Origin: a bacterium
GTDB lineage: Bacteria; Hinthialibacterota; Hinthialibacteria; Hinthialibacterales; Hinthialibacteraceae
Direction: 5' to 3'
Length of the DNA stretch: 64,000 nt
Assembly (NCBI GenBank): GCA_963662285.2
Contig: CAXXMV010000006.1
Coordinates: 1,280,001 to 1,344,000, forward strand
Shown here: one piece after another, positions 16,980 to 51,732 of the stretch
Position numbering within the stretch: the first letter of the stretch is position 1
How the letters are laid out: each line of letters starts with the position of its first letter
Notes under the pieces: generated by a model
The model's database searches: none
The model's input: only the letters and a program-made list of their open reading frames with translations
Told to the model about the DNA's origin: nothing
Program-made: the position numbers and the translations under genes

Positions 16980-18164
16980 ATGATTAAACCCCATGGTTCG
17001 AGTACGCTTAATCCACTGTATGTGCAAGATGATGTAAAAAGAAACGCGCTTATTCAGGAAGCAGAAGGACTGCCCTCGATTTTGATTAGTTCTGCTGCTG
17101 CGGGCAATGCCGTCATGATGGGAAGCGGCTATTTTAATCCACTAACCGGATTCATGAACAAAGCGGATTCCATTAGCGTTGCGGAAAAAATGACTACTTC
17201 CAGCGGTCTGTTTTTCCCAGTGCCAATCATCAATGTAGTAGAAGATGCTTCTTCTATTAAAGGCATCAGCCGCATTGCTTTACGCGATCCCAATGTTGAT
17301 GGAAACCCGATAATTGCTATACAGGATGTGGAAGCAATTGAAGAGTTTTCTGATGATGAAATGAAAATGATGACGGATAAGATTTTCTGCACGGATGATC
17401 CTAAACATCCAGGCGTTGCAGCCTTTACTTCTGTTGGAAAAACATGCATCTCCGGTCCTATCCAAGTATTGAACTTCTCGTATTTTGATAAAGAGTTTCC
17501 AGATACATTCAGAACCGCCTATCAGATAAGAGAAGAGATGGAAAAACTGGGATGGGAAAAAGTTGTTGCGTTCCAAACCCGTAATCCCATGCATCGCGCT
17601 CATGAAGAACTATGCCGTATGGCGTATGAGGCTGTTAAGGCGGATGGCATCCTTATTCACATGTTGCTGGGTAAATTGAAACCAGGCGATATCCCTGCTG
17701 ATGTCAGAGACGCCAGCATTCGTAAAATGGTTGAATTATACTTCCCCGCGAATACAGTTTTAGTCACAGGTTACGGATTTGATATGCTTTACGCCGGCCC
17801 GAGAGAAGCTGTACTGCATGCCGTTTTCCGCCAGAACACAGGATGCACTCATTTAATCGTAGGAAGAGATCATGCTGGAGTCGGCGACTATTACGGTCCC
17901 TTTGATGCTCAGACCATATTCCACGAGCAAGTTCCTGAAGGCGCTTTGGAGATCGAAATTTTTGAAGCGGATCATACTGCCTGGTCGAAGAAATTAAACG
18001 AAGTAGTTATGATGCGTGATCATCCAGATCATACAAAAGATGATTATGTCTTCTTATCCGGCACAAAAGTGCGGGAGATGCTGTCAAAAGGCGAAGCCTT
18101 ACCAGTAGAATTTTCGCGACCGGAAGTGGCGGAAATCCTGATGAAATATTATCAGTCCTTATAA
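16980..18164 (+). CDS. sat: Sulfate adenylyltransferase (ATP sulfurylase)
   Basis: VVAFQTRNPMHRAHEEL, MLYAGPREAVLHAVFRQN, GRDHAGVGDYY, LSGTKVREML; GAGGAG RBS. Confidence 0.98.
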   Translation: MIKPHGSSTLNPLYVQDDVKRNALIQEAEGLPSILISSAAAGNAVMMGSGYFNPLTGFMNKADSISVAEKMTTSSGLFFPVPIINVVEDASSIKGISRIALRDPNVDGNPIIAIQDVEAIEEFSDDEMKMMTDKIFCTDDPKHPGVAAFTSVGKTCISGPIQVLNFSYFDKEFPDTFRTAYQIREEMEKLGWEKVVAFQTRNPMHRAHEELCRMAYEAVKADGILIHMLLGKLKPGDIPADVRDASIRKMVELYFPANTVLVTGYGFDMLYAGPREAVLHAVFRQNTGCTHLIVGRDHAGVGDYYGPFDAQTIFHEQVPEGALEIEIFEADHTAWSKKLNEVVMMRDHPDHTKDDYVFLSGTKVREMLSKGEALPVEFSRPEVAEILMKYYQSL

Positions 18165-18174
18165 TTAGGAAGAT

Positions 18175-18210
18175 CAATAAAAAGGGAGCCATTGGCTCCC
18201 TTTTTTATTG
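18175..18210 (+). terminator. Intrinsic terminator after sat
   Basis: caataaaaagggagcc-att-ggctcccttttttattg. Confidence 0.9.
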
Positions 18211-18353
18211 TTCAGACATGTTAAGTTGAAAATGTAGAGCAGAAGTTCACGATTTCATGAAAGGGATTTTTTTTATACTACTTTTGTAACAGGTCAGCCA
18301 TATGAAGTAGTGACACTATAGATATGTTTTATACAAGGCTTTTTTATTAAAAT

Positions 18354-18470
18354 TCTCCCCACAAGTTTGGGGGGAGTTAGAGGGGGTTGCGTTTCAACGA
18401 ATCAACCCCCACCTAACCTCCCCAAGGCTTGGGGTAGGGATAACGCACTTCAATTGGCTGACCAGTTACC
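18354..18470. repeat. Dispersed G/C-tract palindromic repeat (family A), copy 2, an inverted doublet
   Basis: ctccccacaagtttggggggagttagagggggttg...caacccccacctaacctccccaaggcttggggtaggga...gcacttcaattggct; homologous to 6820-6914 in the opposite orientation. Confidence 0.85.
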
Positions 18471-18723
18471 TACTTTTTAAGTGAGTTGTATATATTTATA
18501 TATATTCATAAATACTTATAAATATATACAAGTAATATAGAAATTTACGATTAACGGAAAAGTAATTAATAAATCAAAACTTATTGATATGTAAATGAAT
18601 GAAAAATATTATATAAGTAACAAAATATTTGCATGTAATAGTTTTAGTTTAGTATGCAAATAATATGTATTGTATAGCCATAAATAAAGTAAATTATTTG
18701 ATTCAAAAAAGCTCAAAGTTGTC

Positions 18724-18834
18724 TTGACTTAGAGAATTATTTATATTAGTGTAAATAATCCAAAATGTGAAATTCTATTATTCTTTAATGTTGGATTATT
18801 AAATTTGACATTATTGGGTGTTAAATTTAATAAT
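18724..18834 (+). promoter_or_regulatory. Candidate sigma70 promoters upstream of aprB
   Basis: TTGACT-N17-TAGTGT (18724-18752) and TTGACA-N18-AATAAT (18805-18834). AT-rich context lowers specificity. Confidence 0.4.
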
Positions 18835-19247
18835 TGTTTTTTCTATTATTATATTATTGTATGTATTAGAAATACAATGATTTATGTTGATTATTCCCGA
18901 ACCTCAACAGGGACATTTCATAAGTTGTTTTTCGATTTGAAGCGAAGGAATAGGAGGGGAAATGCCATCAAAAAATGGTTTTGATCCTTCACGTGATAAA
19001 ATAATATAAAAATTAATTTGCTTTCCCTACAATAATTGATTGAGGGAAGTGATAAATATTAATATAAATATTTATAGCAGCATTACATAGTAGAAATGTA
19101 ATGCGTAAATATATTTATTTATTAGTACTGGCTAATTGCGAAAGGAGGTGGGGCGTTTTTTTGTTAATCTGTTCGCAAGATGGGTGAATCCACTGCGGAT
19201 TGGAAAATATTCTAGATAATAACACAAGATTCTGAGGAGGAATTTCG

Positions 19248-19685
19248 ATGCCAAGTTATGTAATTCCTGATAAATGTGATGGATGTAAGGCATTAGATAA
19301 AACCGCATGCCAATACATCTGTCCAAACGATCTCATGGTGCTGAATAAAGACATCATGAAGGCTTATAATTGTGAGCCTGAAATGTGTTGGGAGTGTTAC
19401 AACTGCGTAAAAATATGCCCCACGCAAGCTGTGGAAGTACGAGGTTACGCAGATTTCGTTCCCTTGGGCGCAAGTGTGACGCCTTTGAGAAGCACCGATT
19501 CAATAATGTGGACGGTGAAGTTCCGAAATGGGATGTTGAAACGTTTTAAGTTCCCCATTAGGACTACTCCTGAAGGATCGGCAGTACCAGACGGCGGATG
19601 GAGCACAGGATCAGATGATCTCGCAAGCCCGTGCCTCTTTACCGAACCAGATTCCTCGGGGCTCCCTGCAGTCCCGGGACTATAG
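19248..19685 (+). CDS. aprB: Adenylylsulfate reductase beta subunit
   Basis: CDGC...CQYICPND, CWECYNCVKICP, RGYADFVP, IMWTVKFRNG..KRFKFPIRTT; GAGGAGG RBS. Confidence 0.98.
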   Translation: MPSYVIPDKCDGCKALDKTACQYICPNDLMVLNKDIMKAYNCEPEMCWECYNCVKICPTQAVEVRGYADFVPLGASVTPLRSTDSIMWTVKFRNGMLKRFKFPIRTTPEGSAVPDGGWSTGSDDLASPCLFTEPDSSGLPAVPGL

Positions 19686-19703: not shown

Positions 19704-21608
19704 GTGGCAAACTTTGAAACAATAGAGGTTACAACTGATCTCCTGATACTCGGTGGAGGTATGGCTTCATGTGGAGCAGCAGTTGAAGCTGCTTACTGGG
19801 CGAAAAAGAACAACGTTAAAGTTACGTTGGTTGATAAAGCATCGATGGATCGAAGCGGCGCTGTCGCGATGGGTCTTTCAGCCATTAACCAATATGTTGG
19901 CTTAAAAGACGGACAAAATACTCTTAAGGATTATGTGGATTATGTCCGCAATGACCTTATGGGAATCACCCGTGAAGACCTTGTTGCTAATATCGCTCGT
20001 CATGTTGACTCCAGCGTGCATCTATTTGAAAAATGGGGACTTCCCATTTGGACTGATGCTGAAGGAAAATACGTCCATGAGGGACGTTGGCAGTTGATGA
20101 TCAATGGTGAGTCTTATAAAGTTATCGTTGCTGAAGCAGCTAAGAATGCTTTAGGGATGGAAAACATTTATGAGCGCGTCTTTATAGTTGGACCAATAAT
20201 GGACGGCGAAAAAATCGCTGGCGCAGTTGGTTTCAGCGTTAGAGAGAATAAATTTTACGTATTCAAAGCCAAAGCCGTTATGGCGGCTATGGGCGGCGCG
20301 GTACACGTCTTCAAACCGAGATCATCGGGCGAAGGCCTGGGTCGCGCGTGGTATCCACCCTGGAACTCAGGTTCAAGCGCATACTTCACATTGAAAGCCG
20401 GAGCGGAAATGACCTGTCAGGAAGTACGTTTCATTCCGGTTCGTTTCAAGGACGCTTATGGTCCTGTCGGCGCTTGGTTCCTTCTATTCAAATCCAGAGC
20501 AACCAATGCATTAGGCGAAGAGTATATGATCACTCGACGCCCGGAACTGCAAAATTGGGTGCCCTATGGCAATGTTAAACCTGTTCCGGCTAACTTACGC
20601 AACTGGCTCGGTATGCTAGATATAATGGAAGGCAAAGGCCCCATTTATATGAGAACCGAGGAAGCTATTCAGAAACTTTCTGAACAAGAGCCGGATGAAA
20701 AGTTACGCAAGAAAAAACTGAAAGAACTCGAATCAGAAGCATGGGAAGATTTCCTTGACATGACAATTTCCCAGGCGATTATGTGGGCTGGAACCAACGT
20801 TGCTCCAGAAGAGAAACCTTCTGAAATCGCAGCGGCTGAACCTTACTTCATTGGTTCTCACTCCGGCGCATCCGGCGCTTGGGTTAGTGGTCCTGAAGAT
20901 TTAGCTCCAGATGAATATAACTGGGGTTACGCCAATATGACGACTGTACCGGGTCTCTTCTGCGCAGGCGACGCTTCTGGCGCATCAAGTCATAAATTCT
21001 CTTCTGGTTCACATGCAGAAGGACGCATTGCTGGTAAAGCTGCGGTAAAATTCTGCGTCGATAATCCTGATCAACCTAATGTTGATGCAGCAACTATCGA
21101 AAAACTAAAAGCAGAGATACTCAAACCATTGGATATATTTGAACAGCATAAAAATGCTTCAAGTGATCCAGAAATTAACCCCAACTATATTAAACCTAAA
21201 GCCTTCATGTTCCGTCTGCAGAAGATCATGGACGAATATGCCGGTGGTGTTTCGGCTCAATTTAAGACCAGCCAAGCTTTATTGGATAAAGGTCTTGAAT
21301 TATTGGATTTCCTCAGAGAAGATGCTGAACTATTGGCAGCTGAGGATCTGCATGAGTTGATGCGTTGTTGGGAAAATGTTCATCGCATGTGGCAGGCTGA
21401 AGCGCATGTTAGAACGGTTATGTTCCGTGAAGAAACACGGTGGCCGGGATACTATTTCCGATCTGATACTCCAACAATGGATGAAGAAAATTGGAAATGT
21501 TTCGCTAACTGCGTACGCAATCCTAATACTGGCGAATGGACTATGTTGAAGAGAAATATCATACCTATTTTTGGTGAAGCAAGCGATCACGAAACAATTG
21601 GTGGATAA
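19704..21608 (+). CDS. aprA: Adenylylsulfate reductase alpha subunit
   Basis: DLLILGGG, DRSGAVAMGLSAIN, WQLMINGESYK, GRAWYPPWN, RFKDAYGPVGAWFL, HKFSSGSHAEGR, REETRWPGYY; GTG start with AGGAGG RBS. Confidence 0.98.
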   Translation: MANFETIEVTTDLLILGGGMASCGAAVEAAYWAKKNNVKVTLVDKASMDRSGAVAMGLSAINQYVGLKDGQNTLKDYVDYVRNDLMGITREDLVANIARHVDSSVHLFEKWGLPIWTDAEGKYVHEGRWQLMINGESYKVIVAEAAKNALGMENIYERVFIVGPIMDGEKIAGAVGFSVRENKFYVFKAKAVMAAMGGAVHVFKPRSSGEGLGRAWYPPWNSGSSAYFTLKAGAEMTCQEVRFIPVRFKDAYGPVGAWFLLFKSRATNALGEEYMITRRPELQNWVPYGNVKPVPANLRNWLGMLDIMEGKGPIYMRTEEAIQKLSEQEPDEKLRKKKLKELESEAWEDFLDMTISQAIMWAGTNVAPEEKPSEIAAAEPYFIGSHSGASGAWVSGPEDLAPDEYNWGYANMTTVPGLFCAGDASGASSHKFSSGSHAEGRIAGKAAVKFCVDNPDQPNVDAATIEKLKAEILKPLDIFEQHKNASSDPEINPNYIKPKAFMFRLQKIMDEYAGGVSAQFKTSQALLDKGLELLDFLREDAELLAAEDLHELMRCWENVHRMWQAEAHVRTVMFREETRWPGYYFRSDTPTMDEENWKCFANCVRNPNTGEWTMLKRNIIPIFGEASDHETIGG

Positions 21609-21682: not shown

Positions 21683-21714
21683 AACTTTAGCGTATTAAGG
21701 TTTTGTGGAGACTA

Positions 21715-21972
21715 ATGGAATCATATACCTGTCCGCATTGCGGCGAAACTTTGAAGCAATGGAAAACACCCGCTGATTCGAGTTGGGGAGAAGGTTTTCA
21801 GTATGTTTGTTTTAATGATGAATGTTCCTATTTCTTGAAGGGATGGGAGCACATGAAAAGTAATTACAATGCTAACAGTTCTTACCGGCATAGATTCGAT
21901 CCGGTTAGTGGAGAAACAGGTCCTCTGCCGGTGTGGTCTAAAGATGCCTTGAAAGACAATGTTTGCGAATAA
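21715..21972 (+). CDS. Small zinc-ribbon protein of a type associated with sulfate-reducer gene clusters
   Basis: CPHC...W...YVCFNDECSYF..GW...YRHRFDP..G...PLPVWS; GGAG RBS before ATG 21715 (track start 21703). Confidence 0.7.
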   Translation: MESYTCPHCGETLKQWKTPADSSWGEGFQYVCFNDECSYFLKGWEHMKSNYNANSSYRHRFDPVSGETGPLPVWSKDALKDNVCE

Positions 21973-22134: not shown

Positions 22135-22956
22135 ATGAAAGAAATTAATAAACTGAGAGAAGCGATCCTCAAGGATTTCAAACGTTTTTCAAAAAGTGAT
22201 GAATTCAAATTCAGTTGTCATTGTGACTTGAAATGCTTTAACAAATGTTGTTCTGATGTGAATATATTCCTTACGCCTTATGATATTCTCCGTATGAAGA
22301 ATGAATTAGGAATATCCTCCCAAGAGTTTCTTGATAAATATACTATAATCCCTATTGACCGAAACCAGAAATATCCTGTTGTGCTTCTTCAGATGATGGA
22401 CACCGATGCTAAACAGTGTCCTTTTGTCGATGCTGAAAAGGGGTGCACCATTTATAATAACCGTCCCTGGGCCTGCCGTATGTATCCTGTGGGATTGGCT
22501 TCACCAGATGATAAAGAGACGGCTCTTGATGAAGAGTTTTATTTTCTGCTCGAAGATCCCATTTGCGAAGGATTGAAAGAGAGCAAGGCTTGGACTTTTC
22601 AGAGTTGGATGGAAAATCAAGGCGTAGAAGAATACAGCGAGTTGGGTGAAGCGTTTAAGGAAGTCGTTCTACATCCGATGATGCTGGATGACAAACCGAT
22701 GGATCCTAAAAAATTGGATATGTTCTTCATGGTTTGCTATAACCTTGATTCGTTTAAACGCTTTGTTTTTGAAAGCCGCTTTTTACAGATGTTTGATGTT
22801 GAACCGGATGTATTGGATAAAATTAGAGATAGTGATATTGAATTAATGAAGTTCGGCTTCAAATGGTTGAAATTCAGCTTGTTTGGCGAAAAAACCATGG
22901 TTATCAAAGCTGAGGTTCTTGAAGAGAAGAAGAAAATGATGGAGAAGAATGATTAA
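22135..22956 (+). CDS. YkgJ-family (CxxxCC) cysteine-cluster protein
   Basis: FKFSC...CFNKCC...LTPYDILR...CPFV...GCTIYNNRPWACRMYP...CEG. Confidence 0.85.
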   Translation: MKEINKLREAILKDFKRFSKSDEFKFSCHCDLKCFNKCCSDVNIFLTPYDILRMKNELGISSQEFLDKYTIIPIDRNQKYPVVLLQMMDTDAKQCPFVDAEKGCTIYNNRPWACRMYPVGLASPDDKETALDEEFYFLLEDPICEGLKESKAWTFQSWMENQGVEEYSELGEAFKEVVLHPMMLDDKPMDPKKLDMFFMVCYNLDSFKRFVFESRFLQMFDVEPDVLDKIRDSDIELMKFGFKWLKFSLFGEKTMVIKAEVLEEKKKMMEKND

Positions 22957-27799: not shown

Positions 27800-27869
27800 G
27801 GACTGGATGATTTTAGTAGATTGTTGATTAATAATTACTCCCTGAATAAGGTAGATCTTGGAGAATTCA

Positions 27870-39729: not shown

Positions 39730-40302
39730 ATGAACCTGTTCGATCTACTTTCAGAAAATAAATCCAAGATTTTTGATGAATGGCTAAACATCATTCTGGG
39801 TAGTTATTCAGATGATGCATCAAACTTTTTTAAAAAAGAAAAAGATCCTTTCGCTAATCCGGTTGGAAATATATTTCGGGAAGCAAGCCATAAACTTTTT
39901 GAAATATTGATATTGGACGAGTCGCTCCAAGGGATCGAAGAACCGCTGGATAAAATAGTCCGGATTAAAGCCGTACAGGATTTTAGTCCATCCCAAGCTA
40001 TCCAGTTTATTTTCCACCTTAAACCAATTATTCGTGATGTATATAATAAAAATAAAGATAACGGCGTATCCATAGATTCTCTTTTGGCTATCGAATCCAG
40101 AATTGATCAATTGGCTTTGATGGCATTTGATAACTATATGGATTGCCGGGAAAAAATATACGAGATCAAGGCTAATCAGGTGAAGAATATGTCGTACAAG
40201 CTTTTAGAACGATCTAATATGTTATCAGTGACTGAAACTGGTGAGACTTGCGTCAAGCAGGGAGAAGATTCATGCAGCAAAAATGGAGGGTGTGAAAAAT
40301 GA
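39730..40302 (+). CDS. dsrT: DsrT (RsbRD N-terminal domain protein)
   Basis: KDPFANPVG, IVRIKAVQDFSPSQAIQFIFHLK, IDQLALMAFDNYMDCREKIYEIK; ATGA overlap with dsrM. Confidence 0.95.
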   Translation: MNLFDLLSENKSKIFDEWLNIILGSYSDDASNFFKKEKDPFANPVGNIFREASHKLFEILILDESLQGIEEPLDKIVRIKAVQDFSPSQAIQFIFHLKPIIRDVYNKNKDNGVSIDSLLAIESRIDQLALMAFDNYMDCREKIYEIKANQVKNMSYKLLERSNMLSVTETGETCVKQGEDSCSKNGGCEK

Positions 40303-41318: not shown

Positions 41319-41402
41319 CTAAATCTTGCTAGTTTGAGATAATGATGTGATACAGTTTTATGGTTGTGCGCTTACTCAATTTTAATGTGAGATGGTGTAA
41401 AA

Positions 41403-43031
41403 ATGTCGGATAACGTATCTAAAAAACCAGAAGAACTCGCGCGAATCGATTATAACCTTCCAAAAAAGAATTGGATGGATCCCCATATCGATTTTGAAAA
41501 GAAGAAGGGCAACTGGTGCTATACCGCCGCTCCCAAGAACATTGAATATGTGGGATTGCCTAATCCACGGGAATGGTCTCCAACCGATGAGGATTGGCAG
41601 TTGCAAGACAATTGGAAAGAGATAATTTTCGAAGGCATCCGGGAAAGATTAGATAAGTACCGTTCATTAAGGCTATTCATGGATATCTGCGTAAGGTGCG
41701 GAGCCTGCGCTGATAAGTGCCATTTTTTTATCGGGTCTGGCGATCCCAAAAACATGCCGGTGCTGCGCGCCGAATTGTTCCGTTCCATTTACCGTAATGA
41801 TTTTACCCTGGCCGGAAAAATATTGGGCAGTTTAGCCGGAGGTAGAGAATTAACAGTCGATATAGTCAAAGAATGGTTTTACTATTTCTTCCAGTGTACT
41901 GAGTGTCGACGATGCTCGGTTTTTTGTCCTTACGGCATAGATACCGCAGAAATAACCATGCAGGTCAGGGAATTGCTCAGTCTGGTCGGCGTGGGCATCA
42001 ACTGGGTGATGGAGCCGGTGGCCAATTGTTATCGAACCGGCAATCATCTGGGAATACCTCCTCATGCGTTCAAAGATAATGTGGAATTCGCGGCAGACGA
42101 TTTGCATGATATAACGGGCGTAAAGGTCGATGCTCCAGTCGGCAAGAAAGGCGCTGAAATTTTGGTAATCGTGCCTTCAGCCGATTATTTCGGCAATCCC
42201 CATTATTTCACCTTCCTGGGTTATATGGCTTTATTCCACGAAATTGGTCTGGATTATACCTTCAGTGGATATTCATCCGATGGCGGCAATTTCGGTTTGT
42301 TCCATTCTAGAGAGATGCTCAAACGGCTTAACGCCAAAATATACGCAGAAGCGAAACGCCTGGGCGTTAAATGGATACTGGGTTGCGAGTGCGGACACAT
42401 GTGGCGCGTGATGCATCAGTATATGGATACCATGAATGGTCCAGCTGATTTTCTGGAAGAACCGGTTTCACCAATGACCGGAACCAGATTTGATAATGCC
42501 AAAACCACCAAGATGGTTCATATCTGCGAGTTCACTTCTGATCTGATCAAAAATAATAAAATAAAATTAGATCCCAGCCGAAACGATAAATGGAAGGTGA
42601 CCTTCCATGATTCATGCAACCCGGCGCGGGCTATGGGTTTAATAGAAGAGCCGCGTTATGTTTTGAATAATGTAGTTAATAATTTCCATGAAATGCCGGA
42701 CAATACTATCAAAGAGCAGACCTTCTGTTGCGGAGGCGGTTCAGGATTGGGCGCTGATGAGAATATGGAAATGCGCCTGCGGGGCGGCTTCCCCAGAGCC
42801 AATGCGGTGCAGTATGTAAAAGATAAGCACAAAGTAAATTTCCTCTCGTGCATCTGTGCAATTGATAAGGCTGTTCTACCGCCTCTTATGGATTATTGGG
42901 TTCCAGATATTACGGTCGGCGGCATTCATGAATTAGTGGGTAATGCCCTTATTATGGAGGGTGAGAATGAACGTACTATGGATTTACGGGGCGAACCATT
43001 CAAAACCGATGATGACCAAGGAGAAGCGTGA
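41403..43031 (+). CDS. dsrK: DsrK Fe-S protein (HdrD-like)
   Basis: CVRCGACADKCHFF, NMPVLRAEL, CTECRRCSVFCPYGID, ECGHMWR, HDSCNPAR, CCGGGSG, CAID. Confidence 0.98.
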   Translation: MSDNVSKKPEELARIDYNLPKKNWMDPHIDFEKKKGNWCYTAAPKNIEYVGLPNPREWSPTDEDWQLQDNWKEIIFEGIRERLDKYRSLRLFMDICVRCGACADKCHFFIGSGDPKNMPVLRAELFRSIYRNDFTLAGKILGSLAGGRELTVDIVKEWFYYFFQCTECRRCSVFCPYGIDTAEITMQVRELLSLVGVGINWVMEPVANCYRTGNHLGIPPHAFKDNVEFAADDLHDITGVKVDAPVGKKGAEILVIVPSADYFGNPHYFTFLGYMALFHEIGLDYTFSGYSSDGGNFGLFHSREMLKRLNAKIYAEAKRLGVKWILGCECGHMWRVMHQYMDTMNGPADFLEEPVSPMTGTRFDNAKTTKMVHICEFTSDLIKNNKIKLDPSRNDKWKVTFHDSCNPARAMGLIEEPRYVLNNVVNNFHEMPDNTIKEQTFCCGGGSGLGADENMEMRLRGGFPRANAVQYVKDKHKVNFLSCICAIDKAVLPPLMDYWVPDITVGGIHELVGNALIMEGENERTMDLRGEPFKTDDDQGEA

Positions 43032-43033
43032 TC

Positions 43034-43411
43034 ATGTATGATAAGAACAAAATCATCCCTGGCATCATTGTATTTTTATTATTATTTACGTTTCCCGTCT
43101 GGTATAACGCGGCTTTCGGAAGCGATAGCAAGGTTCCTGATCCTCAGATTGTTACTAAAGAAAAAAACTGCGTTGAATCCAGGGAATATATGCGGACCCA
43201 ACATATGGATTTATTGAACCAATGGAGAGACGCTGTCGTGCGCTACGATATGCGGATGTATAAAACCGCTGATGGTAAAAAAGTTGAAATAAGCCTGACA
43301 AATACGTGTCTCAAATGTCATTCCAATAAAACTCAGTTTTGTGATTCATGTCATGATTATTTGGCGGTAAAACCATATTGTTGGGATTGTCATATTGCGC
43401 CCATGGAGTAA
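43034..43411 (+). CDS. dsrJ: DsrJ triheme periplasmic cytochrome c
   Basis: MYD..KII.G, CVES..YMR..HM.LL..WRD.VVR, three CxxCH (CLKCH, CDSCH, CWDCH); alternative GTG start at 43028. Confidence 0.96.
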   Translation: MYDKNKIIPGIIVFLLLFTFPVWYNAAFGSDSKVPDPQIVTKEKNCVESREYMRTQHMDLLNQWRDAVVRYDMRMYKTADGKKVEISLTNTCLKCHSNKTQFCDSCHDYLAVKPYCWDCHIAPME

Positions 43412-43416
43412 AAGAG

Positions 43417-44229
43417 ATGGCTTTGGATAGAAGAAAATTTTTTAAAATCGCCGGATTATCCAGTTTAGTGGGTTTGATGGGTAAGCAGTCATTTCCTGTG
43501 GGAGGGGAATCGGAATCCAAATATTCCCATGGAGATGAACAGTTGCATGGTGAACGATGGGCCATGGTGATAGATTTAAAGAAATGTAAAAATGGTAAAG
43601 GCTGTGATCAGGATTGCAAAAAAGCCTGCCATGTATCACATAATGTCCCCAGTATTGATGAACCCAAACATGAAATCAAATGGATTTGGTTGGAAGAATA
43701 TGATAAAGCTTTTCCAACTCAAGAAAATGAATTCATCAACCAGGAATTATTGCATTCGAGAACCCCAGTATTATGCAATCATTGCGCTAATCCGCCTTGC
43801 GTCAAAGTGTGCCCGACGCAGGCAACCTGGAAGCGTGAAGATGGAATTGTCATGATGGATTGGCATCGGTGCATTGGATGCCGCTATTGCGTCGCCGCAT
43901 GTCCGTATGGATCAAGAAGTTTCAATTGGTTTGATCCGGTCGAGCGAAATGAAAATGGTAATATTGAAAAAGAGCAGAAGTATTTGAAGACCGTAAATCC
44001 AGTTTTCCCGACGCGCTCCAAAGGCGTGGTGGAGAAATGTACTTTCTGTGATGAGAGATTAGCTAGAGGTCAACAACCTGCCTGTGTGGAAGCCTGCAAG
44101 GAAGGCGCGATGATTTTTGGCGATTTAGAAGAACCAGAGTCGGAAATCAGAAAGATTCTGAATAATCGATTCAGCATTAGAAGAAAACCCGGTTTGGGAA
44201 CGCAACCACAAATCTATTATCTAATATAA
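43417..44229 (+). CDS. dsrO: DsrO periplasmic ferredoxin-like protein
   Basis: Tat signal MALDRRKFFK; RWAMVID, CNHCANPPCVKVCP, CIGCRYCVAACPYGSRSFNW, EKCTFC..R, PACVEAC. Confidence 0.96.
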   Translation: MALDRRKFFKIAGLSSLVGLMGKQSFPVGGESESKYSHGDEQLHGERWAMVIDLKKCKNGKGCDQDCKKACHVSHNVPSIDEPKHEIKWIWLEEYDKAFPTQENEFINQELLHSRTPVLCNHCANPPCVKVCPTQATWKREDGIVMMDWHRCIGCRYCVAACPYGSRSFNWFDPVERNENGNIEKEQKYLKTVNPVFPTRSKGVVEKCTFCDERLARGQQPACVEACKEGAMIFGDLEEPESEIRKILNNRFSIRRKPGLGTQPQIYYLI

Positions 44230-44232
44230 GGT

Positions 44233-45390
44233 GTGAAGATGTTTGAATACGCTTTGAGAGGCAACCGGCAGTATTGGGTATGGCTGGCTATTTTGGGCGG
44301 CATTATCGGGGTTGGCGTTGTGTGCTATCTCATCCAGTTCACCCAGGGTTTGGGAATTACTGGGATGAGCCGTGATGTAACCTGGGGTTTTTATATCGCT
44401 CAGTTTACATTTCTGGTCGGCGTCGCGGCATCAGCGGTGATGGTGGTATTGCCCTGTTATCTGCATAATTACAAAGCGTTTGGCAAGATCGCCATACTGG
44501 GCGAGTTCATCGCTATTGCTTCAGTAACCATGTGCATCCTGTTTATAATGGTCGATCTGGGGCAGCCCATGCGCGGCGTGAATATCATATTGCATCCTTC
44601 ACCCCGATCATTGATGTTCTGGGATATGATTATTTTGAATGGTTATCTATTTATTAATCTTATCATATCCTGGTTTACGCTGGAATCAGAAAGACGGTCC
44701 GTCGCTCCGCCTAAATGGATCAAACCGGTGATATATCTTTCAATACCCTGGGCGGTCAGCATCCATACGGTTACAGCGTTTCTTTATAGTGGACTCACAG
44801 CCCGGCCCTTCTGGATGACAGCTGTTCTGGCGCCAAGATTTCTTGCTTCGGCATTCGCAGCCGGCCCGGCTTTATTGATAATCCTATGTCTCATTCTTCG
44901 GAAATTGACAAAATTTGATCCGGGAAAAGAACCGATTCAAACTCTGGCCAAAATCGTGGCCTATGCCATGGCTGTAAACCTTTTCCTGGTATTGATGGAA
45001 GTCTTTACCGCTTTTTATAGCGCCATGCCGGAACATACAGTGCACTTCAAATATTTATTCGGTGGTATTGCAGGCGCCAGCGCTTTAACCTTATGGATGT
45101 GGTTCTCCGTAATGATAGGATCGATTTCCCTGGTATTATTGATCTATCCCAAGACGCGCATTGATGAGACCGTTCTCAGCATAGCATGCGTGGGAGTTTT
45201 TATTTCCTTGTGGATCGATAAAGGTTTAGCGATGGTGGTTGCCGGATTCATTCCTTCGCCTACCGGAGTATTTACCGAATATGCTCCAACTTTACCGGAA
45301 TTATTAATTTCTTTAGGGATTTATGCCATAGGAATGAGTATAATAACTGTATTATATAAAATCGCGCTTACGGTTAGGAAAGAGATATAA
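44233..45390 (+). CDS. dsrP: DsrP NrfD/PsrC-family membrane protein
   Basis: GLGITGMSRDVTWGFYIAQFTFLVGVAASAVM, VDLGQP.R, SIPWAVSIHTVTAFLY, APRFLASAFAAGPA, WIDKG. Confidence 0.96.
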   Translation: MKMFEYALRGNRQYWVWLAILGGIIGVGVVCYLIQFTQGLGITGMSRDVTWGFYIAQFTFLVGVAASAVMVVLPCYLHNYKAFGKIAILGEFIAIASVTMCILFIMVDLGQPMRGVNIILHPSPRSLMFWDMIILNGYLFINLIISWFTLESERRSVAPPKWIKPVIYLSIPWAVSIHTVTAFLYSGLTARPFWMTAVLAPRFLASAFAAGPALLIILCLILRKLTKFDPGKEPIQTLAKIVAYAMAVNLFLVLMEVFTAFYSAMPEHTVHFKYLFGGIAGASALTLWMWFSVMIGSISLVLLIYPKTRIDETVLSIACVGVFISLWIDKGLAMVVAGFIPSPTGVFTEYAPTLPELLISLGIYAIGMSIITVLYKIALTVRKEI

Positions 45391-45453: not shown

Positions 45454-46278
45454 ATGTCCGTCGTTACCATTTCCTATGGTTCGAGTGATATAAGAGGACA
45501 CATCGCTGATGGCGTGGCCCAGTTATTAGGCTACAAATTAGTCGGTCGTGAAGTATTAAAAGAAGCCTCCAATCGTTTTAATGTGATGGAGTCAAAGTTA
45601 TCTCACGCAATTCATCATGGTCCCACTTTTTTCGGCATGTCCGATACTACCAGAAAAAAATATATTTCCTACATATTGGCAATCGCATCAGAATCATTAT
45701 TACAAAATGAAATTGTCTATCATGGGCCAGCGGGGCATATCATAGCGCAAGGGATTCCTCATATCTTAAAAGTACGCCTTGTTTCATCACCGGAATCAAG
45801 AATCGCCTATACCATGGATCACAATAACCTTTCCCGTGAACGTGCGGAGCAGGTTGTTGAAAAAGAGAATATCGACAGAAAAAAATGGGCGAGCATCGCT
45901 TTTGGTATTAATGATGACGATAAAGATATCTACGATCTATTAATCTGTGAATGTCAGATTGGAATGAAAAGAACTATTGAAACAATCGTCAATGCAGCAC
46001 GGGAAAAAAAATATAAACCGATGACGTACTCTATGCAATGCATCCGTAATAAGGAATTATCCTGCCGTATACAAGCATTGCTTATTGATATTAATCAAGA
46101 TATTAAAGTGCAATGTGAAAATGGTAGAGTAACACTTTCGGTCTGTCTTCGGGAGAGCGAAAAAAACAAAAAACAAAAAATCATACAAAAACGCCTGGAA
46201 ACGATTGATGATGTTGAGCATATCGAAATCAATATAATTGATGATATGTTTGATCGTGATGTTGGAATTATGAGATAA
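45454..46278 (+). CDS. Cytidylate kinase-like family protein with degenerate P-loop and C-terminal BON-like domain
   Basis: MSVVTIS..., A..LGYKLVGREVL, IVYHGPAGH, HILKVRL, YDLLI; C-terminal IKVQCENGRVTL. Confidence 0.75.
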   Translation: MSVVTISYGSSDIRGHIADGVAQLLGYKLVGREVLKEASNRFNVMESKLSHAIHHGPTFFGMSDTTRKKYISYILAIASESLLQNEIVYHGPAGHIIAQGIPHILKVRLVSSPESRIAYTMDHNNLSRERAEQVVEKENIDRKKWASIAFGINDDDKDIYDLLICECQIGMKRTIETIVNAAREKKYKPMTYSMQCIRNKELSCRIQALLIDINQDIKVQCENGRVTLSVCLRESEKNKKQKIIQKRLETIDDVEHIEINIIDDMFDRDVGIMR

Positions 46279-46350
46279 CACAAATCTGTATTATTTACCT
46301 CTTGCGTTTTTTCCAACCTGAATTTATCAAGAACGGAGAGGATATGAAAA

Positions 46351-46749
46351 ATGGACGGTCCATTAAAGATACTACTGCTGGATGATGAAATGATCGTTGG
46401 GAAACGGCTTGAACCAGCGCTTGCCAAGTGTGGCTATGATGTTGAGTTTTTCAGTAATCCCCTGATGGCGCTCGAACGGATTGAGCAAAAAGAATTCGAT
46501 ATTTTGGTAGCTGATATCTATATGGATGAAATGGATGGATTTCAGGTTATTGAAAAAGTACTGGGTAAATACCCCAATATCAAAATAATTGTTATAACTG
46601 GTTACGCCATGATGGAGATAGCGCGTGAAGCTATGGATAAGGGAGCATTTGATTTCATAGCCAAGCCATTTAAGCCGGATGATCTTAGAAAAATTATTGT
46701 AAAAGCAGCATGTGCTCTGGGATATAAAGCCGATGACGGGCAATCGTAA
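46351..46749 (+). CDS. Stand-alone response regulator receiver protein
   Basis: ILLLDDE, DILVADIYMDEMDG, IVITGYA, GAFDFIAKPF; no output domain. Confidence 0.92.
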   Translation: MDGPLKILLLDDEMIVGKRLEPALAKCGYDVEFFSNPLMALERIEQKEFDILVADIYMDEMDGFQVIEKVLGKYPNIKIIVITGYAMMEIAREAMDKGAFDFIAKPFKPDDLRKIIVKAACALGYKADDGQS

Positions 46750-46820
46750 AGATATTATTGACGTATGAAATTAGTTAATAAAAAATATGGTTTATTTATT
46801 TCCTTGAGTATGGCAAGTCA

Positions 46821-47942
46821 ATGATAGAAGAAGAATCCACTAGTAAGGCGCTAAGTGAAAGACCACAATTCAGTATTCGAATGCAAATATATATCAGTAT
46901 GGCGCTATCAATTATTGTCATACTGAGTATTGCAATTATCCATTTTTTGATAATGCAAACTTTGGATACTTCTCATATAGATGGATGGGTTAAACTTTTG
47001 TGGCGCGTTCATTCGATTTTACTGATTATGCTTTTTATTGTAATACTATTTAATACTTATTTATTAAATAGAAGAATACTGGCGCCGATCAATCGCTTCG
47101 TCCATTACACTCATAGAATAGCGACTGGCGATTATTCTATGATTGTGCCGGCGCGGCCTTACCGTGATGAGTTTTCCGAATTAGCTATGGCCATCAATAT
47201 GATGATAAAAGAATTGGAATTTCGTCAGAAAATTCTGATTCAATCGCACAAACTACAAGCGATGGGTTCTCTGATTGCTGGAGTCGCGCACGAACTCAAT
47301 AATCCAATCAATAATATAATGTTAACTTCGAGTATGCTGAAAGAAGATTTCGGAACATTGTCTGATGCAGAACATCTGGAAATGATCGAAGATATTATCA
47401 ATGAAACTGATCGATCCAAAAGAATTATTTTTAATCTTTTGGATTTTGCCCGTGATAGAGAAAAGAAGGTTGAACCTCTTGATATGGGCAATATTGTTAA
47501 GGAAACATTAAAACTAGCCGCCAATCAAATATCATTAAAAGGCTTAAACATCGATCTATCGGTGATACCCGATCTTCCCACCGTGTTATGCGACCGGCAT
47601 CAAATGATACAAGTTTTTCTAAATGTGTTGATTAACGCGCTTGATGCAACTCCAAAAGGCGGTGGAATAAAAATTGATGTGGGAACTTCCAATACGGCAA
47701 AGTTTCTTACTGTTAAAATTACTGATTCCGGTCCAGGAATTCCTGAACATGTTATTCCTTCGATATTTGATCCATTTTTTACAACTAAATCAAAACAAGG
47801 CGGAACAGGATTGGGATTATCCGTCTGTCAGGGCATTTTATCTAAACTCAATGGTGATATCAGCGCTTACAGTGACCAGGATATCGGAACGACTTTTACT
47901 GTTGCATTGCCGCTAACCAAGAATGATTCAGTGGAAACTTAA
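46821..47942 (+). CDS. Sensor histidine kinase (2 TM, HAMP, HisKA, HATPase)
   Basis: AGVAHELNNPINNI, QVFLNVLINALDA, DSGPGIP, IFDPFFTTK, GTGLGLS. Confidence 0.95.
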   Translation: MIEEESTSKALSERPQFSIRMQIYISMALSIIVILSIAIIHFLIMQTLDTSHIDGWVKLLWRVHSILLIMLFIVILFNTYLLNRRILAPINRFVHYTHRIATGDYSMIVPARPYRDEFSELAMAINMMIKELEFRQKILIQSHKLQAMGSLIAGVAHELNNPINNIMLTSSMLKEDFGTLSDAEHLEMIEDIINETDRSKRIIFNLLDFARDREKKVEPLDMGNIVKETLKLAANQISLKGLNIDLSVIPDLPTVLCDRHQMIQVFLNVLINALDATPKGGGIKIDVGTSNTAKFLTVKITDSGPGIPEHVIPSIFDPFFTTKSKQGGTGLGLSVCQGILSKLNGDISAYSDQDIGTTFTVALPLTKNDSVET

Positions 47943-48015
47943 TCAGTAGAAAAAAGGAATATTGTCCTGATATTTTATGATGAATTGATAATAAGAGGTC
48001 AATGAGGATTTTAAT

Positions 48016-50229
48016 ATGCTAAATAGAATTTTTCCCTTTCTGATATGGTTTAATAATTATAATGGAGCTAAATTATGGAATGATTTTATCGCCGGGTTGA
48101 ATGTCGCGTTAGTGCTGGTTCCCCAGTCGATGGCCTATGCTCAGCTGGCTGGTTTGCCGGTCTATTATGGATTGTACGCCGCGTTTTTACCTCCTATGGT
48201 CGCCGCCCTGTTTGGCTCCAGCAACCAACTGGCGACCGGACCAGTCGCCATAGTATCATTGATGACGGCCACTGCTCTTGAACCATTGGCGGTGCAGGGC
48301 AGCGATGGATATGTGGCCTATGCGATATTGCTGGCTTTACTAGTGGGATTATTTCAGTTTACTCTGGGACTATTGCGGTTGGGGATTCTGGTTAACTTTT
48401 TATCTCATCCAGTTGTGATCGGATTTACAAATGCAGCGGCGATTATCATCGCAACTTCTCAACTATCCAAACTGTTCGGGGTGGACGTCGACAAAGGTCA
48501 TTATCATTACGAAACCGTAATTAGAATAATAAAAGCGGCTATTAATTATACTCATTGGCCGACTTTTTTTATGGCTGTTCTGGCCATCTCGATGATGGTG
48601 TTTCTTAGAAAATTATTACCTAAGATACCCAATGTATTGGCGGCGGTGGCGTTTACCACCTTTCTTTCCTGGTCGATGGGTTTCGAGAAATATGAAAGTG
48701 TCAATATAAATCAAATATCATCACCGGAAATAATTAATGCAATATCTAATTTTAATGAATCCATTGAAAAAGTTGATTTTTTTTCAAAACAAAGAGCGGA
48801 ATTATCACCAGTGATTCGAAAGGCTGAGAAAGAAAATGGCATCCATTCAACGGAAGTGATTAAACTACACCATGATGCATCATTGATAAACCTGAATATA
48901 TCCGAGTGGGGAGAGAAAGTTGAGTATTACCGTTTTGTTTTGAGGCATTATAATTTCGAATCTGGCATTGATAACAACGATAAAATAACTTTTTATATAT
49001 TAAATACCTTACCGGATAACTTGAAAAATGAAGGCAAACTATGGCGATTGAAGGTAAATAATCGTAAATTAGATGAGTCCGCACTGAAATTTATTTGCGG
49101 TGGAGCAGTAGTCGGCGTTATTCCTGAAGGGTTGCCTCAATTTAAAATCCCGAAAGTGGATTTTTCCATTTTTTTCCAATTGTTTCCCGTCGCCGTTATC
49201 ATATCACTTTTGGGTTTTATGGAAGCCATTTCCATAGCTAAAGCTATGGCGGCCAAAACCGGTCAAAGACTTGATCCTAATCAGGAATTAATTGGACAGG
49301 GATTGTCGAATATGATTGGATCGTTCGGCCAAAGTTATCCTGTTTCAGGATCGTTTTCCCGATCTGCGGTTAATATCCAATCTGGCGCAAAAACAGGATT
49401 ATCGAGCGTGTTTACCAGTTTTTTTGTTTTTATAGTTTTATTATTCTTTACGCCTTTTCTTTATCATCTTCCGCAGTCGGTGCTTGCATCAATCATCATA
49501 ATGGCAGTGATCAGGCTGATTGATATTCCCGGAATGGCGCGCGCCTGGCGCACCCAGAGATACGATGGAGCTATAGCAGGAATCAGTTTCGCCTGTACTC
49601 TTGGATTTGCGCCTCATCTGGGGAAGGGCATTATAATCGGCGTATTTCTTTCTCTGGCTGTCTTTTTCTACCGGCATATGCGCCCCAGCGTGGGTTTCCT
49701 CTCAAAACATCCTGATGGCAGTTTCAGGGATGTAAATCGATGGGGGCTTAATCAATGCCGCTATATTGCCGTAATTCGATTTAATGGATCGCTGTTTTTT
49801 GCAGACGCCAGTTATCTGGAAAATCGCGTGCTGGAAAAAATATCTTATATGCAAGACCTACGTCATGTTTTATTTGTGGGCAACGCCATAAATGAGATGG
49901 ATGCTTCCGGCGAAGATATGATTTCATCATTGTTTGATAAATTAAAAGTTGCCGGTTATGAAGTTTCTTTCAGTGGATTGAACGATGATATAATCGACAT
50001 CATGAGACGCACTCATTTATTAGATAAAATCGGTGATGATCATATGTTTCGCAACGTGAGAGATGCGTTGAAAGCAATCCATGCTAAAGCGCATTACGAA
50101 TCAATCGAAAAAGAGTGTCCATTACTAATAACCTGTTCAAACTATACAGTTGCCAGCACCGCAAACGGCAAAAGCACCTTTTTAGCCCGATTAATGCCTT
50201 CGATATCTCATGGTTCCAAGCAGAAATAA
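48016..50229 (+). CDS. SulP/SLC26 sulfate permease with STAS domain and large extracytoplasmic insertion
   Basis: LVLVPQSMAYAQLAGLP..YGLYA, GSSNQLATGPVA, GFTNAAA, NQELIGQG, SGSFSRSAVN, STAS RFNGSLFFA...INEMDASG. Confidence 0.95.
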   Translation: MLNRIFPFLIWFNNYNGAKLWNDFIAGLNVALVLVPQSMAYAQLAGLPVYYGLYAAFLPPMVAALFGSSNQLATGPVAIVSLMTATALEPLAVQGSDGYVAYAILLALLVGLFQFTLGLLRLGILVNFLSHPVVIGFTNAAAIIIATSQLSKLFGVDVDKGHYHYETVIRIIKAAINYTHWPTFFMAVLAISMMVFLRKLLPKIPNVLAAVAFTTFLSWSMGFEKYESVNINQISSPEIINAISNFNESIEKVDFFSKQRAELSPVIRKAEKENGIHSTEVIKLHHDASLINLNISEWGEKVEYYRFVLRHYNFESGIDNNDKITFYILNTLPDNLKNEGKLWRLKVNNRKLDESALKFICGGAVVGVIPEGLPQFKIPKVDFSIFFQLFPVAVIISLLGFMEAISIAKAMAAKTGQRLDPNQELIGQGLSNMIGSFGQSYPVSGSFSRSAVNIQSGAKTGLSSVFTSFFVFIVLLFFTPFLYHLPQSVLASIIIMAVIRLIDIPGMARAWRTQRYDGAIAGISFACTLGFAPHLGKGIIIGVFLSLAVFFYRHMRPSVGFLSKHPDGSFRDVNRWGLNQCRYIAVIRFNGSLFFADASYLENRVLEKISYMQDLRHVLFVGNAINEMDASGEDMISSLFDKLKVAGYEVSFSGLNDDIIDIMRRTHLLDKIGDDHMFRNVRDALKAIHAKAHYESIEKECPLLITCSNYTVASTANGKSTFLARLMPSISHGSKQK

Positions 50230-50243
50230 TATTGAGAACCACT

Positions 50244-51449
50244 TTAATCTTTAATCTTATTTCTTCGCCATTTATTCCGGGGTATGAGATAATACAACAG
50301 CGTCGCTCCGATTATCAATGTAATCATTGAAATAAAGATGCGATGCATCCAGCTGGTCGATGTATATGATGAGTTAGAAAGACCAGTATGTACGGGCGCG
50401 GCCAGGATGCCGTCTGCTAACTCAGCATGGCATTGAGCGCAGGTTGCCGCTAGATTATCTGGATGAACCGATGAGTTCGGATCAGCGCTTGGGAGGATAA
50501 AATGAGCGCCATGACAACTACTGCAATTGGCAACTTCCTTGGAACCATTCTGCAAAGCTAAACCATGATAACTATCAAAAAAAGTTTCAACTTTATAGTT
50601 GGATTTATTATGCTCGTTGGTCATTAATAGAGAACCATGGCAACGTCCACAGGAGTTTTCGGATACCTTAAAGAATGAGGCTGGAGATCTTTCATCTTCT
50701 ACTTTATATATTGCATGCTCCCCATGGCAGTCGGTGCAGACGGGAGCATTCTTATGTCCGGTCAGAGCCGATTTACCATGAATGCTCATCTTATATTGCT
50801 GCATCTCAGCAGGATGGCATTCGCCACAGGTATCAGCGATATTAAAAAAATTGGTCTTTGATTGTGGATTACGCAATGGCATGATTGAGTGATAATCATG
50901 ACAGTGGACGCATGATGGCGCTTGAGAGTTGCCACTGGCCAGGGCAATAGCATGGATGTTATCATTTTTTATGAGAGAGGTGGATTTATGACATTGAGCG
51001 CATTGCATACCGATTTTGAATTGATTGGTGAATGAGTTTTGATCTTTGGCAGAGAGTAATTGATGAGCATCGCCATGGCAGGCAATACAACTTGGACCTT
51101 TTTCAGTCGCATGAACAGTATTGGCAATCTCATTATATGTATTGTGACAATGATTGCATTCGACTTTTTCCAATTCAATTGGATGGGGTGATGTTACAAT
51201 ATCTGTATGACAAGCTATGCAATCGAATCCCTTGTGGGCTGAAGTCTTGAAGGAATGGTAGTCGATAAACATAGAAACCGATTGGCCGTTTACCTCACCC
51301 ATCAATTGTTTATCTGCATGGCACTCCATACAGGTTTCATTTTTAAAGGCGCCTGTATGCCCATTTTGGGGATACTGAGCAATGCAAAAGATGAATAACA
51401 GGCCGATTGTGAAAGAGGTTATCCTTCTAAAACGTATCATTCTTATCAT
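50244..51449 (-). CDS. Multiheme cytochrome c (11 CxxCH) with C-terminal membrane anchor
   Basis: CMECH, CIACH, CNHCH, CIACH, CAQCH, CVHCH, CGECH, CTDCH, CGRCH, CSSCH, CAQCH; signal peptide after MIRMIRF; hydrophobic C-terminus. Start uncertain (51464, 51449 or 51440; track 51557). Confidence 0.9.
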   Translation of the reverse strand: MIRMIRFRRITSFTIGLLFIFCIAQYPQNGHTGAFKNETCMECHADKQLMGEVNGQSVSMFIDYHSFKTSAHKGFDCIACHTDIVTSPHPIELEKVECNHCHNTYNEIANTVHATEKGPSCIACHGDAHQLLSAKDQNSFTNQFKIGMQCAQCHKSTSLIKNDNIHAIALASGNSQAPSCVHCHDYHSIMPLRNPQSKTNFFNIADTCGECHPAEMQQYKMSIHGKSALTGHKNAPVCTDCHGEHAIYKVEDERSPASFFKVSENSCGRCHGSLLMTNEHNKSNYKVETFFDSYHGLALQNGSKEVANCSSCHGAHFILPSADPNSSVHPDNLAATCAQCHAELADGILAAPVHTGLSNSSYTSTSWMHRIFISMITLIIGATLLYYLIPRNKWRRNKIKD

Positions 51450-51525
51450 GGGATATTGGGGCATTTCACAAAAAACATTATGAAGGAGAAAAAACTTGAT
51501 TGTTAAATCATCAAGTTTTTCTTGC

Positions 51526-51732
51526 CTATTGGCTTCCTTTTTTAGAAGGCGTTCCATCTTTAGATTTGGTCTTTGTTTTAACTTTAGGTTTTGTCTTTAA
51601 AATAACGCTATTGGTATTATTAATAGCGAAGCGACCGCGCAGGATGCATCCCCTCATTCCTGGTTCGCAGGGACTCGATTTTACTCTCATGCACTTGCCG
51701 TTTAATTCATTCGGGCAATCCCATCCACCCAT
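51526..51732 (-). CDS. Small 4-Cys hypothetical protein with basic tail
   Basis: GGAG RBS before ATG; MGGWDCPNELNGKC...CEPGMRGCILRGRF; co-directional between thrB and the cytochrome gene. Confidence 0.7.
   Translation of the reverse strand: MGGWDCPNELNGKCMRVKSSPCEPGMRGCILRGRFAINNTNSVILKTKPKVKTKTKSKDGTPSKKGSQ

Follow-up and report, generated by a model that had tools for sequence, protein, structure and literature searches.

The sulfate-reduction gene block described here lies at positions 16980-51732 of a 64,000-nucleotide (nt) stretch of DNA, the window (contig CAXXMV010000006.1, positions 1,280,001 to 1,344,000 of the forward strand; assembly GCA_963662285.2), from a bacterium of the phylum Candidatus (Ca.) Hinthialibacterota (OLB16). 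The closest described systems come from the same phylum. The OLB16 metagenome-assembled genome (MAG) SURF-12, listed among putative sulfate reducers with DsrD and DsrL-2C (Diao et al. 2023, PMC10591310), holds the same set of sat, aprAB, qmoABC, dsrABCD, dsrJKLMOP and dsrT, without dsrEFH. For OLB16 from a sulfidic spring, sulfate-reduction capacity was reported in one genome (Hahn et al. 2022, PMC9040765), and the accessible part of that paper describes neither the anatomy of the cluster nor its evolution. Ca. Hinthialibacter antarcticus (Williams et al. 2022, PMC9324843) is a close relative that is also rich in glycoside hydrolases and sulfatases. In other phyla, the Acidobacteriota SbA1-7 (PMC6018796) and CO124 (PMC10564751) likewise degrade polysaccharides and have the complete pathway along with dsrL and dsrD; in the peatland Acidobacteriota genome SbA2 all pathway genes were found on one scaffold (PMC6018796), and co-expression of pectin enzymes and the Dsr pathway was seen by transcriptomics for MAG CO124 (PMC10564751). 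Ca. Thermonerobacter thiotrophicus carries the arrangement sat-aprBA-hyp-hyp-qmoC-dsrAB-dsrD-dsrN-hyp-dsrL-dsrC (hyp, hypothetical gene; PMC6338057). A consecutive dsrABDNCTMKJOP order was described for bacterial reductive lineages by Neukirchen et al. 2023 (PMC10504309), who also concluded that evolution in Bacteria was mainly vertical.

The block studied here has the identical dsr order, but joined to sat-apr-qmo, a persulfide reductase (Npsr) and transporters. With Ca. T. thiotrophicus it shares the arrangement in one block, two conserved hypotheticals 3' of aprA, and dsrD with dsrL; in that organism, however, qmoAB and dsrMKJOP are located elsewhere, dsrL lies 3' of dsrN, and Npsr is not mentioned in the accessible text (PMC6338057). 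CO124 is a facultative aerobe from another phylum (PMC10564751), whereas the source genome is sulfatase-rich and has no heme-copper oxidase match. Ca. H. antarcticus differs in being described as a facultatively aerobic, nitrate-reducing organism whose sulfate reduction is purely assimilatory (PMC9324843). A search of Table S1 of Diao et al. 2023 (PMC10591310) gave one OLB16 row, compared with dsrA in 10 of 35 genomes and three families here; OLB16 gene order, trees and loss scars, all given below, do not appear in the accessible part of that paper. Earlier publications already report a full Dsr pathway in OLB16, clusters in a single block and sulfate reduction fuelled by glycans. A literature search covering few subscription journals returned nothing on pathway breadth, gene order or loss in the phylum, on Npsr linkage, or on respiration of sulfatase-released sulfate; PMC12343361 and PMC5573963 contributed nothing further. 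New are the breadth in Hinthialibacterota, the loss pattern and the co-inherited Npsr; the system is not of a new kind.

With a probability of roughly 0.78, the block was present in the ancestor of one Hinthialibacterota order, was kept as one block and was lost piecemeal in many descendants, and it encodes standard bacterial reductive sulfate respiration of the DsrD/DsrL-2 type. Presence in this ancestor and repeated loss are concluded from gene trees, deletion scars and orphan sat genes.

Source genome and host

Open reading frames were called and profile scans run on the 46 proteins of the window; profile scores are given as bits/curated NCBIfam cut-off. Comparisons were made within a set of 35 phylum genomes (G-numbers; G000, source genome), in which f1-f3 denote three families of one order. 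The fetched loci L002, L003 and L011 were taken to stem from assemblies already among the phylum genomes, and none was counted a second time. The window sits on a 1.9-Mb contig of a 7.29-Mb MAG (8 contigs, 92.5% complete, 3.5% contamination).

RpoB residues 1-500 were closest to the species-level label Ca. Hinthialibacter sp. (83%), followed by Ca. Omnitrophota labels (60-80%), with other phyla mostly at 47-54%. OLB16 was once filed within Omnitrophota (PMC9324843). The best named DsrA locus (90%) bears the label Ca. Omnitrophota, and Sat shared 82% identity with its Ca. H. antarcticus counterpart. From these matches the host is assigned to Ca. Hinthialibacterota (OLB16), where it probably belongs to the family of Ca. 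Hinthialibacter. An earlier prediction made from the sequence of this stretch (the original prediction) had proposed a non-classical, glycan-degrading host; the RpoB placement bears out the first part, and about 47 sulfatase genes (50 matches) together with 9 GH29, 6 GH2 and 4 GH78-type (rhamnosidase-domain) glycosidase matches bear out the second. Sulfatase load was dropped as a correlate of the pathway, as sulfatases occurred in 35/35 phylum genomes, with per-genome counts reaching at least 48.

Core genes of the block

The predicted gene inventory between 16980 and 51732 was confirmed: core genes scored above curated cut-offs and all frames were open. The core set Sat-AprBA-QmoABC-DsrABC-DsrMKJOP was present and intact. 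The core genes, with the genes that keep a fixed place among them, are:

16980..18164, + strand: sat, ATP sulfurylase (TIGR00339, 395/323 bits)
19248..19685, + strand: aprB (TIGR02060, above cut-off)
19704..21608, + strand: aprA (TIGR02061, 936/642 bits; best PDB match 1JNR)
21703..21972, + strand: small Ogr/Delta-like zinc-finger protein, 3' of aprA (PF04606)
22135..22956, + strand: CxxCxxCC-family protein between aprA and qmoA (PF03692)
22989-24248, + strand: qmoA, HdrA-like
24262-26517, + strand: qmoB, HdrA-like, with MvhD/FlpD domain
26585-27799, + strand: qmoC (NF038018, 451/300 bits)
30680..32359, + strand: npsr, Npsr-type coenzyme A (CoA)-dependent persulfide reductase, a fusion of PNDOR (CoA-disulfide-reductase) and rhodanese
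33094..34788, + strand: dsrL, type 2 (PRK12771, 610/516 bits; YRR at residue 301)
34883-36103, + strand: dsrA (TIGR02064, 609/393 bits)
36179-37255, + strand: dsrB (TIGR02066, 516/342 bits)
37271..37525, + strand: dsrD-like winged-helix protein of 84 aa, by position directly 3' of dsrB and predicted fold
37575-38990, + strand: dsrN (CobB/CbiA-family profile, above cut-off)
39056-39373, + strand: dsrC (above cut-off; both C-terminal cysteines, Cx10C)
39730..45390, + strand: dsrT, dsrM, dsrK, dsrJ, dsrO and dsrP (NF038037, NF045796, NF038038, NF045797 and NF045798, above cut-off)

DsrT was assigned from its RsbRD_N domain and position. DsrJ has three CxxCH heme motifs.

Distribution and gene order in the phylum

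Comparison with sister genomes, suggested along with the original prediction, gave dsrA in 10/35 phylum genomes (nine above cut-off, one split), with deletion scars in two others (G024 and G026, see below). aprA was found in 12/35 genomes and qmoC above cut-off in 10/35. All carriers of these three genes belong to f1-f3 and hence to one order; none was found among the nine genomes of other orders (0/9). Within the family of the source genome, dsrA was missing from 13 of 19 genomes.

Of the 10 dsrA carriers, eight had the apr-qmo and dsr genes together in a single block, and three (G000, G017 and G003) had sat next to them. In these three the order sat-aprBA-X-Y-qmoABC-(variable)-npsr-dsrLABDNCTMKJOP was complete, and the block of G003, which belongs to another family than G000, measured just 25 kb. 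The same block without sat was present in G019, G010 and G011, two of which stop at contig edges. In G023 and G025 dsrL-P came first, followed by aprBA-qmoABC, and in G004 and G021 the genes were split over two separate loci. The zinc-finger and CxxCxxCC genes kept the same position in 10/10 phylum dsrA carriers and at five loci of other phyla. In other phyla, aprA, qmoB or qmoC was found within 10 kb of dsrA at 15/77 loci; linkage is therefore common among these lineages.

An orthologue of Npsr (at least 50% identity) was detected in 9/10 dsrA carriers and in 1/25 other phylum genomes. This single dsrA-less genome is G002 (77% complete), where the gene adjoins qmoC. In 8/8 dsrA carriers of f1 and f2, npsr lay immediately 5' of dsrL. 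Judged from this distribution, Npsr is co-inherited with the pathway.

Trees, probable inheritance and loss

In a tree of nine Dsr proteins with 24 outgroup loci, all nine phylum rows formed one clade (Shimodaira-Hasegawa-like approximate likelihood ratio test support 99). Supports were 100 for f3, 97 for f1 and 100 for G004 with G021, matching the clades of the RpoB+RpoC species tree. Within the limited outgroup, the sister group consisted of Zixibacteria, Elusimicrobiota and Ignavibacteria-type loci. An AprAB-based tree likewise recovered f3 and f1+G003. The comparison of gene trees with the species tree, a check named with the original prediction, showed that the gene trees largely follow the species tree.

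Loss was visible directly in the DNA. G026 was 81-85% identical to its congener G025 and collinear with it on both sides of two gaps, one of about 15 kb (yeiH, dsrL-P) and one of about 6 kb (zinc finger to qmoC); it still has aprBA, plus 140 nt left from the end of qmoC. G024 shared the second, ~6-kb scar. Cluster-type Sat (74-82% identity) survived as an orphan in eight f1 genomes without dsr or apr. The orphan aprBA genes were still open after loss of qmoABC and dsr (L158:12560-16077 in G026, L157:1-2316 in G024); with Sat encoded elsewhere, AprBA of these two genomes may serve assimilation or sulfite oxidation.

Several observations weigh against ancestral presence followed by loss. Carriers were scattered on the RpoB+RpoC species tree (6 changes), and change counts alone cannot separate gain from loss. 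G003 grouped with f1 in the nine-protein Dsr tree and with f3 in the species tree, a difference in rooting. The free DsrAB tree, calculated without DsrB of G010, placed f3 apart from the rest and nested G003 in f1. In the AprAB-based tree, monophyly of the phylum was weakly supported (78/83), and G000 grouped with G010 (96/96) instead of with G017 as in the species tree, which is one supported conflict. Most trees were quick trees (LG+G4) with the best 80 DsrA matches as outgroups. Among the fetched loci, no flanking gene was common to the block of the source genome and that of any relative. Finally, the G+C content (GC) of the block was 41.5% compared with 44.0%, within the lowest 4% of 35-kb windows.

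The scattered carriers, the flanks that differ in every carrier and the small tree conflicts of G003 and G010 could also be explained if the block moved as a unit between members of the order, the patchiness then reflecting repeated within-order transfer and loss; the one-block arrangement would favour such co-transfer. This explanation is considered unlikely. The tree conflicts vanish or stay unrejected in approximately unbiased (AU) tests (on DsrAB neither clade was rejected, p-AU 0.51 each), the scars of G024 and G026 and the orphan Sat of eight non-carriers indicate loss, and differing flanks are expected because synteny among these genera is poor genome-wide. Profile scans of the window proteins revealed no mobility genes such as an integrase, and no tRNA or border repeat was found at the block.

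Ancient acquisition of the block at the root of the order is possible. For sat, a separate ancient origin may apply. Sat scored 632 and 628 bits against PDB 1JHD and 4DNX, and at most 216 bits against other solved Sats; a separate origin is hinted at because 1JHD and 4DNX are taken here to be Sats of sulfur oxidisers. The Sat tree gave no resolution inside its clade, and the Sat homologue search returned few named hosts, so that no donor could be named. A terminator-like hairpin follows sat (18179-18205), so sat probably forms its own transcript.

Composition and contig integrity

The original prediction had read the block as a respiratory island, self-contained and probably laterally assembled, with very AT-rich spacers. 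The spacers concerned are:

16600..16979, + strand: AT-rich spacer, 23% GC, probable sat promoter region (10/12 promoter-like match at 16763)
18165..19247, + strand: AT-rich spacer, 29% GC, probable apr-qmo promoter region (11/12 match at 18805)
32360..33093, + strand: AT-rich spacer, 23% GC, probable dsr promoter region (11/12 match at 32653)

These three, 5' of sat, aprB and dsrL, were in the lowest 1-5% of GC for similar length, and spacer 32360..33093 had the fourth lowest GC among 424 spacers of at least 500 nt. The description of very AT-rich spacers held for these three; the other scored spacers inside the block were ordinary. Promoter-like sites totalled 44, compared with 49 in shuffles, and the best sites fell in the three AT-rich spacers.

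A recent, laterally assembled island peculiar to the source genome is very improbable and largely refuted. It would fit the slightly low GC, the three spacers and the lack of dsrA in 13 of 19 same-family genomes. However, much of the low block GC came from the three spacers of 23-29% GC, which lie where promoters are expected, and block codon use is ordinary (90th percentile of the genome for codon usage, 84th for tetranucleotide distance). Orthologous blocks with the same gene order occurred in three families (DsrA identity 73-90%), their clade structure tracks the species tree, and the absences look like loss. The most AT-rich 35-kb windows of the source genome (35-40% GC) were located at C2 ~705-800 kb and C1 ~195-290 kb and are better island candidates.

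Nor was the block self-contained. Outside it, the genome has an Hmc/Tmc-like complex at 1.461-1.466 Mb and another DsrK-like locus at 0.84 Mb of C8, as well as an ACIII/Qrc-like complex at 1.76 Mb of C6; the relatives G003, G017 and G019 hold such modules within or beside the cluster. Between qmoC and npsr, G017 (L116:13462-18520) and G019 (L107:19233 to L108:6029) carry a module that encodes DsrK/TmcB-like and DsrM-like proteins, the latter a membrane protein, together with a triple-PAS histidine kinase and response regulators of the DVU0259-like kind. A similar DsrK/TmcB-like module lies behind an Rrf2 regulator in the source genome itself (L181:6507-14179, C8).

An assembly or binning artefact with a chimeric contig would suit a MAG source with some contamination and read contigs that covered only the left border of the block (comparison over 13001-33000); it is hardly credible. 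Contigs of two public runs, which probably derive from the source sample and are hence not independent, run over the left border with zero differences. One of 3,769 nt spans 14584-18352 at a depth equal to that of its neighbours, so the chimerism at the borders raised with the original prediction is not indicated at the left border, and the cluster proteins are closest to those of same-family genomes. Short repeats at ~14571-14621, 16489-16559 and 18350-18460 were matched by many other contigs of the same runs and gave depth spikes, which suggests REP-like (repetitive extragenic palindromic) elements spread through the genome; the last of the three lies in the spacer 5' of aprB.

Direction and proposed mechanism

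The pathway most likely runs in the reductive direction, supplied by NADPH, because a DsrD-like gene and DsrL-2 are present and DsrE (TIGR03012) had no match in the source genome (92.5% complete; dsrF and dsrH lay outside that search). The YRR motif is the criterion for DsrL-2 (PMC7596348), and DsrL is a predicted NADPH:DsrAB oxidoreductase. DsrD is taken as a reductive marker, and a winged helix is the fold reported for it (PMC8794893). The dsrD-like 84-aa protein was modelled as a winged helix (predicted local distance difference test score 89), and homologues were present at 69 of 78 dsrA loci of other records; the DsrD alignment took in 38 of the available sequences. The protein matched no Pfam or NCBIfam family, and comparison with solved DsrD by PDB sequence, Foldseek or VIA-align gave no match, the fold lists being taken up by other winged helices; the missing match counts neither for nor against DsrD. 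In the DsrAB tree (best 80 matches, without typed references) the proteins fell into a clade with DsrL-2/DsrD-type lineages.

On the other side, DsrL-2 and reductive DsrAB do not prove direction, which sequence alone cannot settle (PMC7596348). DsrL-2 also occurs in oxidisers and in organisms that switch (PMC7596348). The pathway might thus serve mainly sulfur disproportionation, sulfide oxidation in reverse, or as a sulfite/polysulfide sink, and the proximity of Sat to 1JHD and 4DNX, the tight linkage of Npsr, and a cytochrome bd together with an octaheme tetrathionate-reductase (OTR) fusion in the genome could be read in this way. Such a main role is decidedly unlikely, given the DsrD-like gene directly 3' of dsrB, the missing DsrE match, the clustering of DsrAB with DsrD-bearing lineages, and the lack of a heme-copper oxidase match in the source genome; a member of that superfamily was found in 18/19 same-family genomes. 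The OTR fusion (L183:5993-9226, G000 C8) consists of an NrfD/HybB membrane protein and an octaheme cytochrome of the tetrathionate-reductase type, and is followed by a weak SQR-like gene.

For reductive sulfate respiration, the following steps are drawn from the established biochemistry of these families. SulP would import sulfate, Sat would convert it to adenosine 5'-phosphosulfate (APS), and AprBA would reduce APS to sulfite, QmoABC supplying it with quinone-pool electrons. DsrAB, activated by DsrD and equipped with DsrN-made siroamide, would then convert sulfite to the DsrC trisulfide, DsrL-2 handing NADPH electrons to DsrAB (PMC7596348). Reduction of the trisulfide by DsrMKJOP would free sulfide and tie this step to the membrane. 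NADPH and quinol would most likely come from sugars freed by glycosidases and sulfatases (zwf is present). It is plausible that glycan use is coupled to sulfate respiration. NiFe-hydrogenase gave one partial match in the genome. Npsr probably removes persulfide or polysulfide by-products, and YeiH and TauE probably export surplus sulfur oxyanions.

A more far-reaching proposal is offered tentatively and is doubtful as a whole: that the order was ancestrally made up of sulfate-respiring primary degraders of sulfated glycans, with sulfatase-freed sulfate respired by the same cell even where dissolved sulfate is scarce, that this is the main respiration of the source genome, and that Npsr is a working part of the DsrL-2 pathway.

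Accessory genes and flanks

The remaining features of the block are:

27858..29872, + strand: YeiH-family putative sulfur-oxyanion exporter (PF03601; below the TIGR00698 cut-off) and a 98-aa protein without family
29881..30708, - strand: TauE/SafE-family exporter (PF01925)
45454..50229, + strand: accessory tail of cytidylate-kinase-like protein, response regulator, HAMP histidine kinase and SulP sulfate permease (profile matches; SulP, 431/380 bits)
50244..51557, - strand: 11-heme (11 CxxCH) cytochrome c, 437 aa
51526..51732, - strand: cysteine-rich open frame of 68 aa at the right end of the block, upstream of the multiheme cytochrome

In G010 and G017, orthologues (75-77%) of the YeiH/98-aa segment occupy the equivalent position. 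The true TauE start is probably about 22 codons later, because the G010 orthologue aligns from residue 23. Several carriers have YeiH within or beside the cluster; TauE and the regulator-SulP tail were each seen in a single carrier. Among fetched loci, the same four tail genes were present only in G019, 3' of dsrP after one extra gene.

In the Npsr-type protein, the PNDOR active-site cysteine and the C-terminal rhodanese cysteine are both present, and its best PDB match was 6PFZ (491 bits), which is Archaeoglobus fulgidus Npsr (PMC7969121). That enzyme has the same PNDOR and rhodanese layout and also comes from a sulfate reducer; its role is stated there to be unknown (PMC7969121). In the block studied here, the gene is physically linked to the junction between qmo and dsr.

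The multiheme cytochrome, counted as part of the supercluster in the original prediction, was rejected as a module component and is regarded as a bystander: homologues occurred in 21/35 genomes, carriers and non-carriers alike, and it was not found in the fetched clusters of relatives. With 437 aa it is shorter than its phylum homologues, most of whose open frames run to 580-850 aa. Some 7-12 kb past the right end of the window (L184:7172-12397) lie two large relatives of the 11-heme protein, multiheme cytochromes with 15 and 19 CxxCH motifs. A deletion scar between sat and the window cytochrome in G009 was also rejected, as the multiheme gene there best matches another cytochrome ~20 kb beyond the block (64%); that sat adjoins a multiheme cytochrome in G009 suggests no more than weakly, and post hoc, that this neighbourhood is old. 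The 68-aa open frame matched no family and had no homologue in the family and locus searches.

Flanks of carbohydrate-active enzyme and surface genes, as predicted, were found in part: a GH38 gene lies ~12 kb to the left, but the immediate right flank consists of homoserine kinase and aminotransferase genes. On the left, a PF00144 beta-lactamase-fold serine hydrolase (13344-14493) is split over two frames (13344-13763 and 13684-14493) by a frameshift or sequencing error. On the right, the class I/II aminotransferase (53950-55659) has an extra N-terminal region of ~175 aa without family match, a xylose-isomerase-like TIM barrel is fused to a Cgl0159-like aldolase domain (55727-57838), and a large surface protein with LTD, CotH kinase, Ig and LamG domains (60940-64000) extends beyond the window.

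Significance

If the block is ancestral, a phylum so far represented by one or two dsr genomes gains an order with ancestral sulfate respiration, retained in about a third of species, and offers a clear case of pathway decay with visible scars. Beside Acidobacteriota, it would be another group whose polymer degraders may join glycan breakdown and sulfate reduction in one cell, and the glycans may be sulfated. If true, sulfated-glycan respirers would link polymer breakdown to sulfide production in one organism. The fixed place of npsr between qmo and dsrL provides a genetic clue to the role of Npsr in sulfate reducers.

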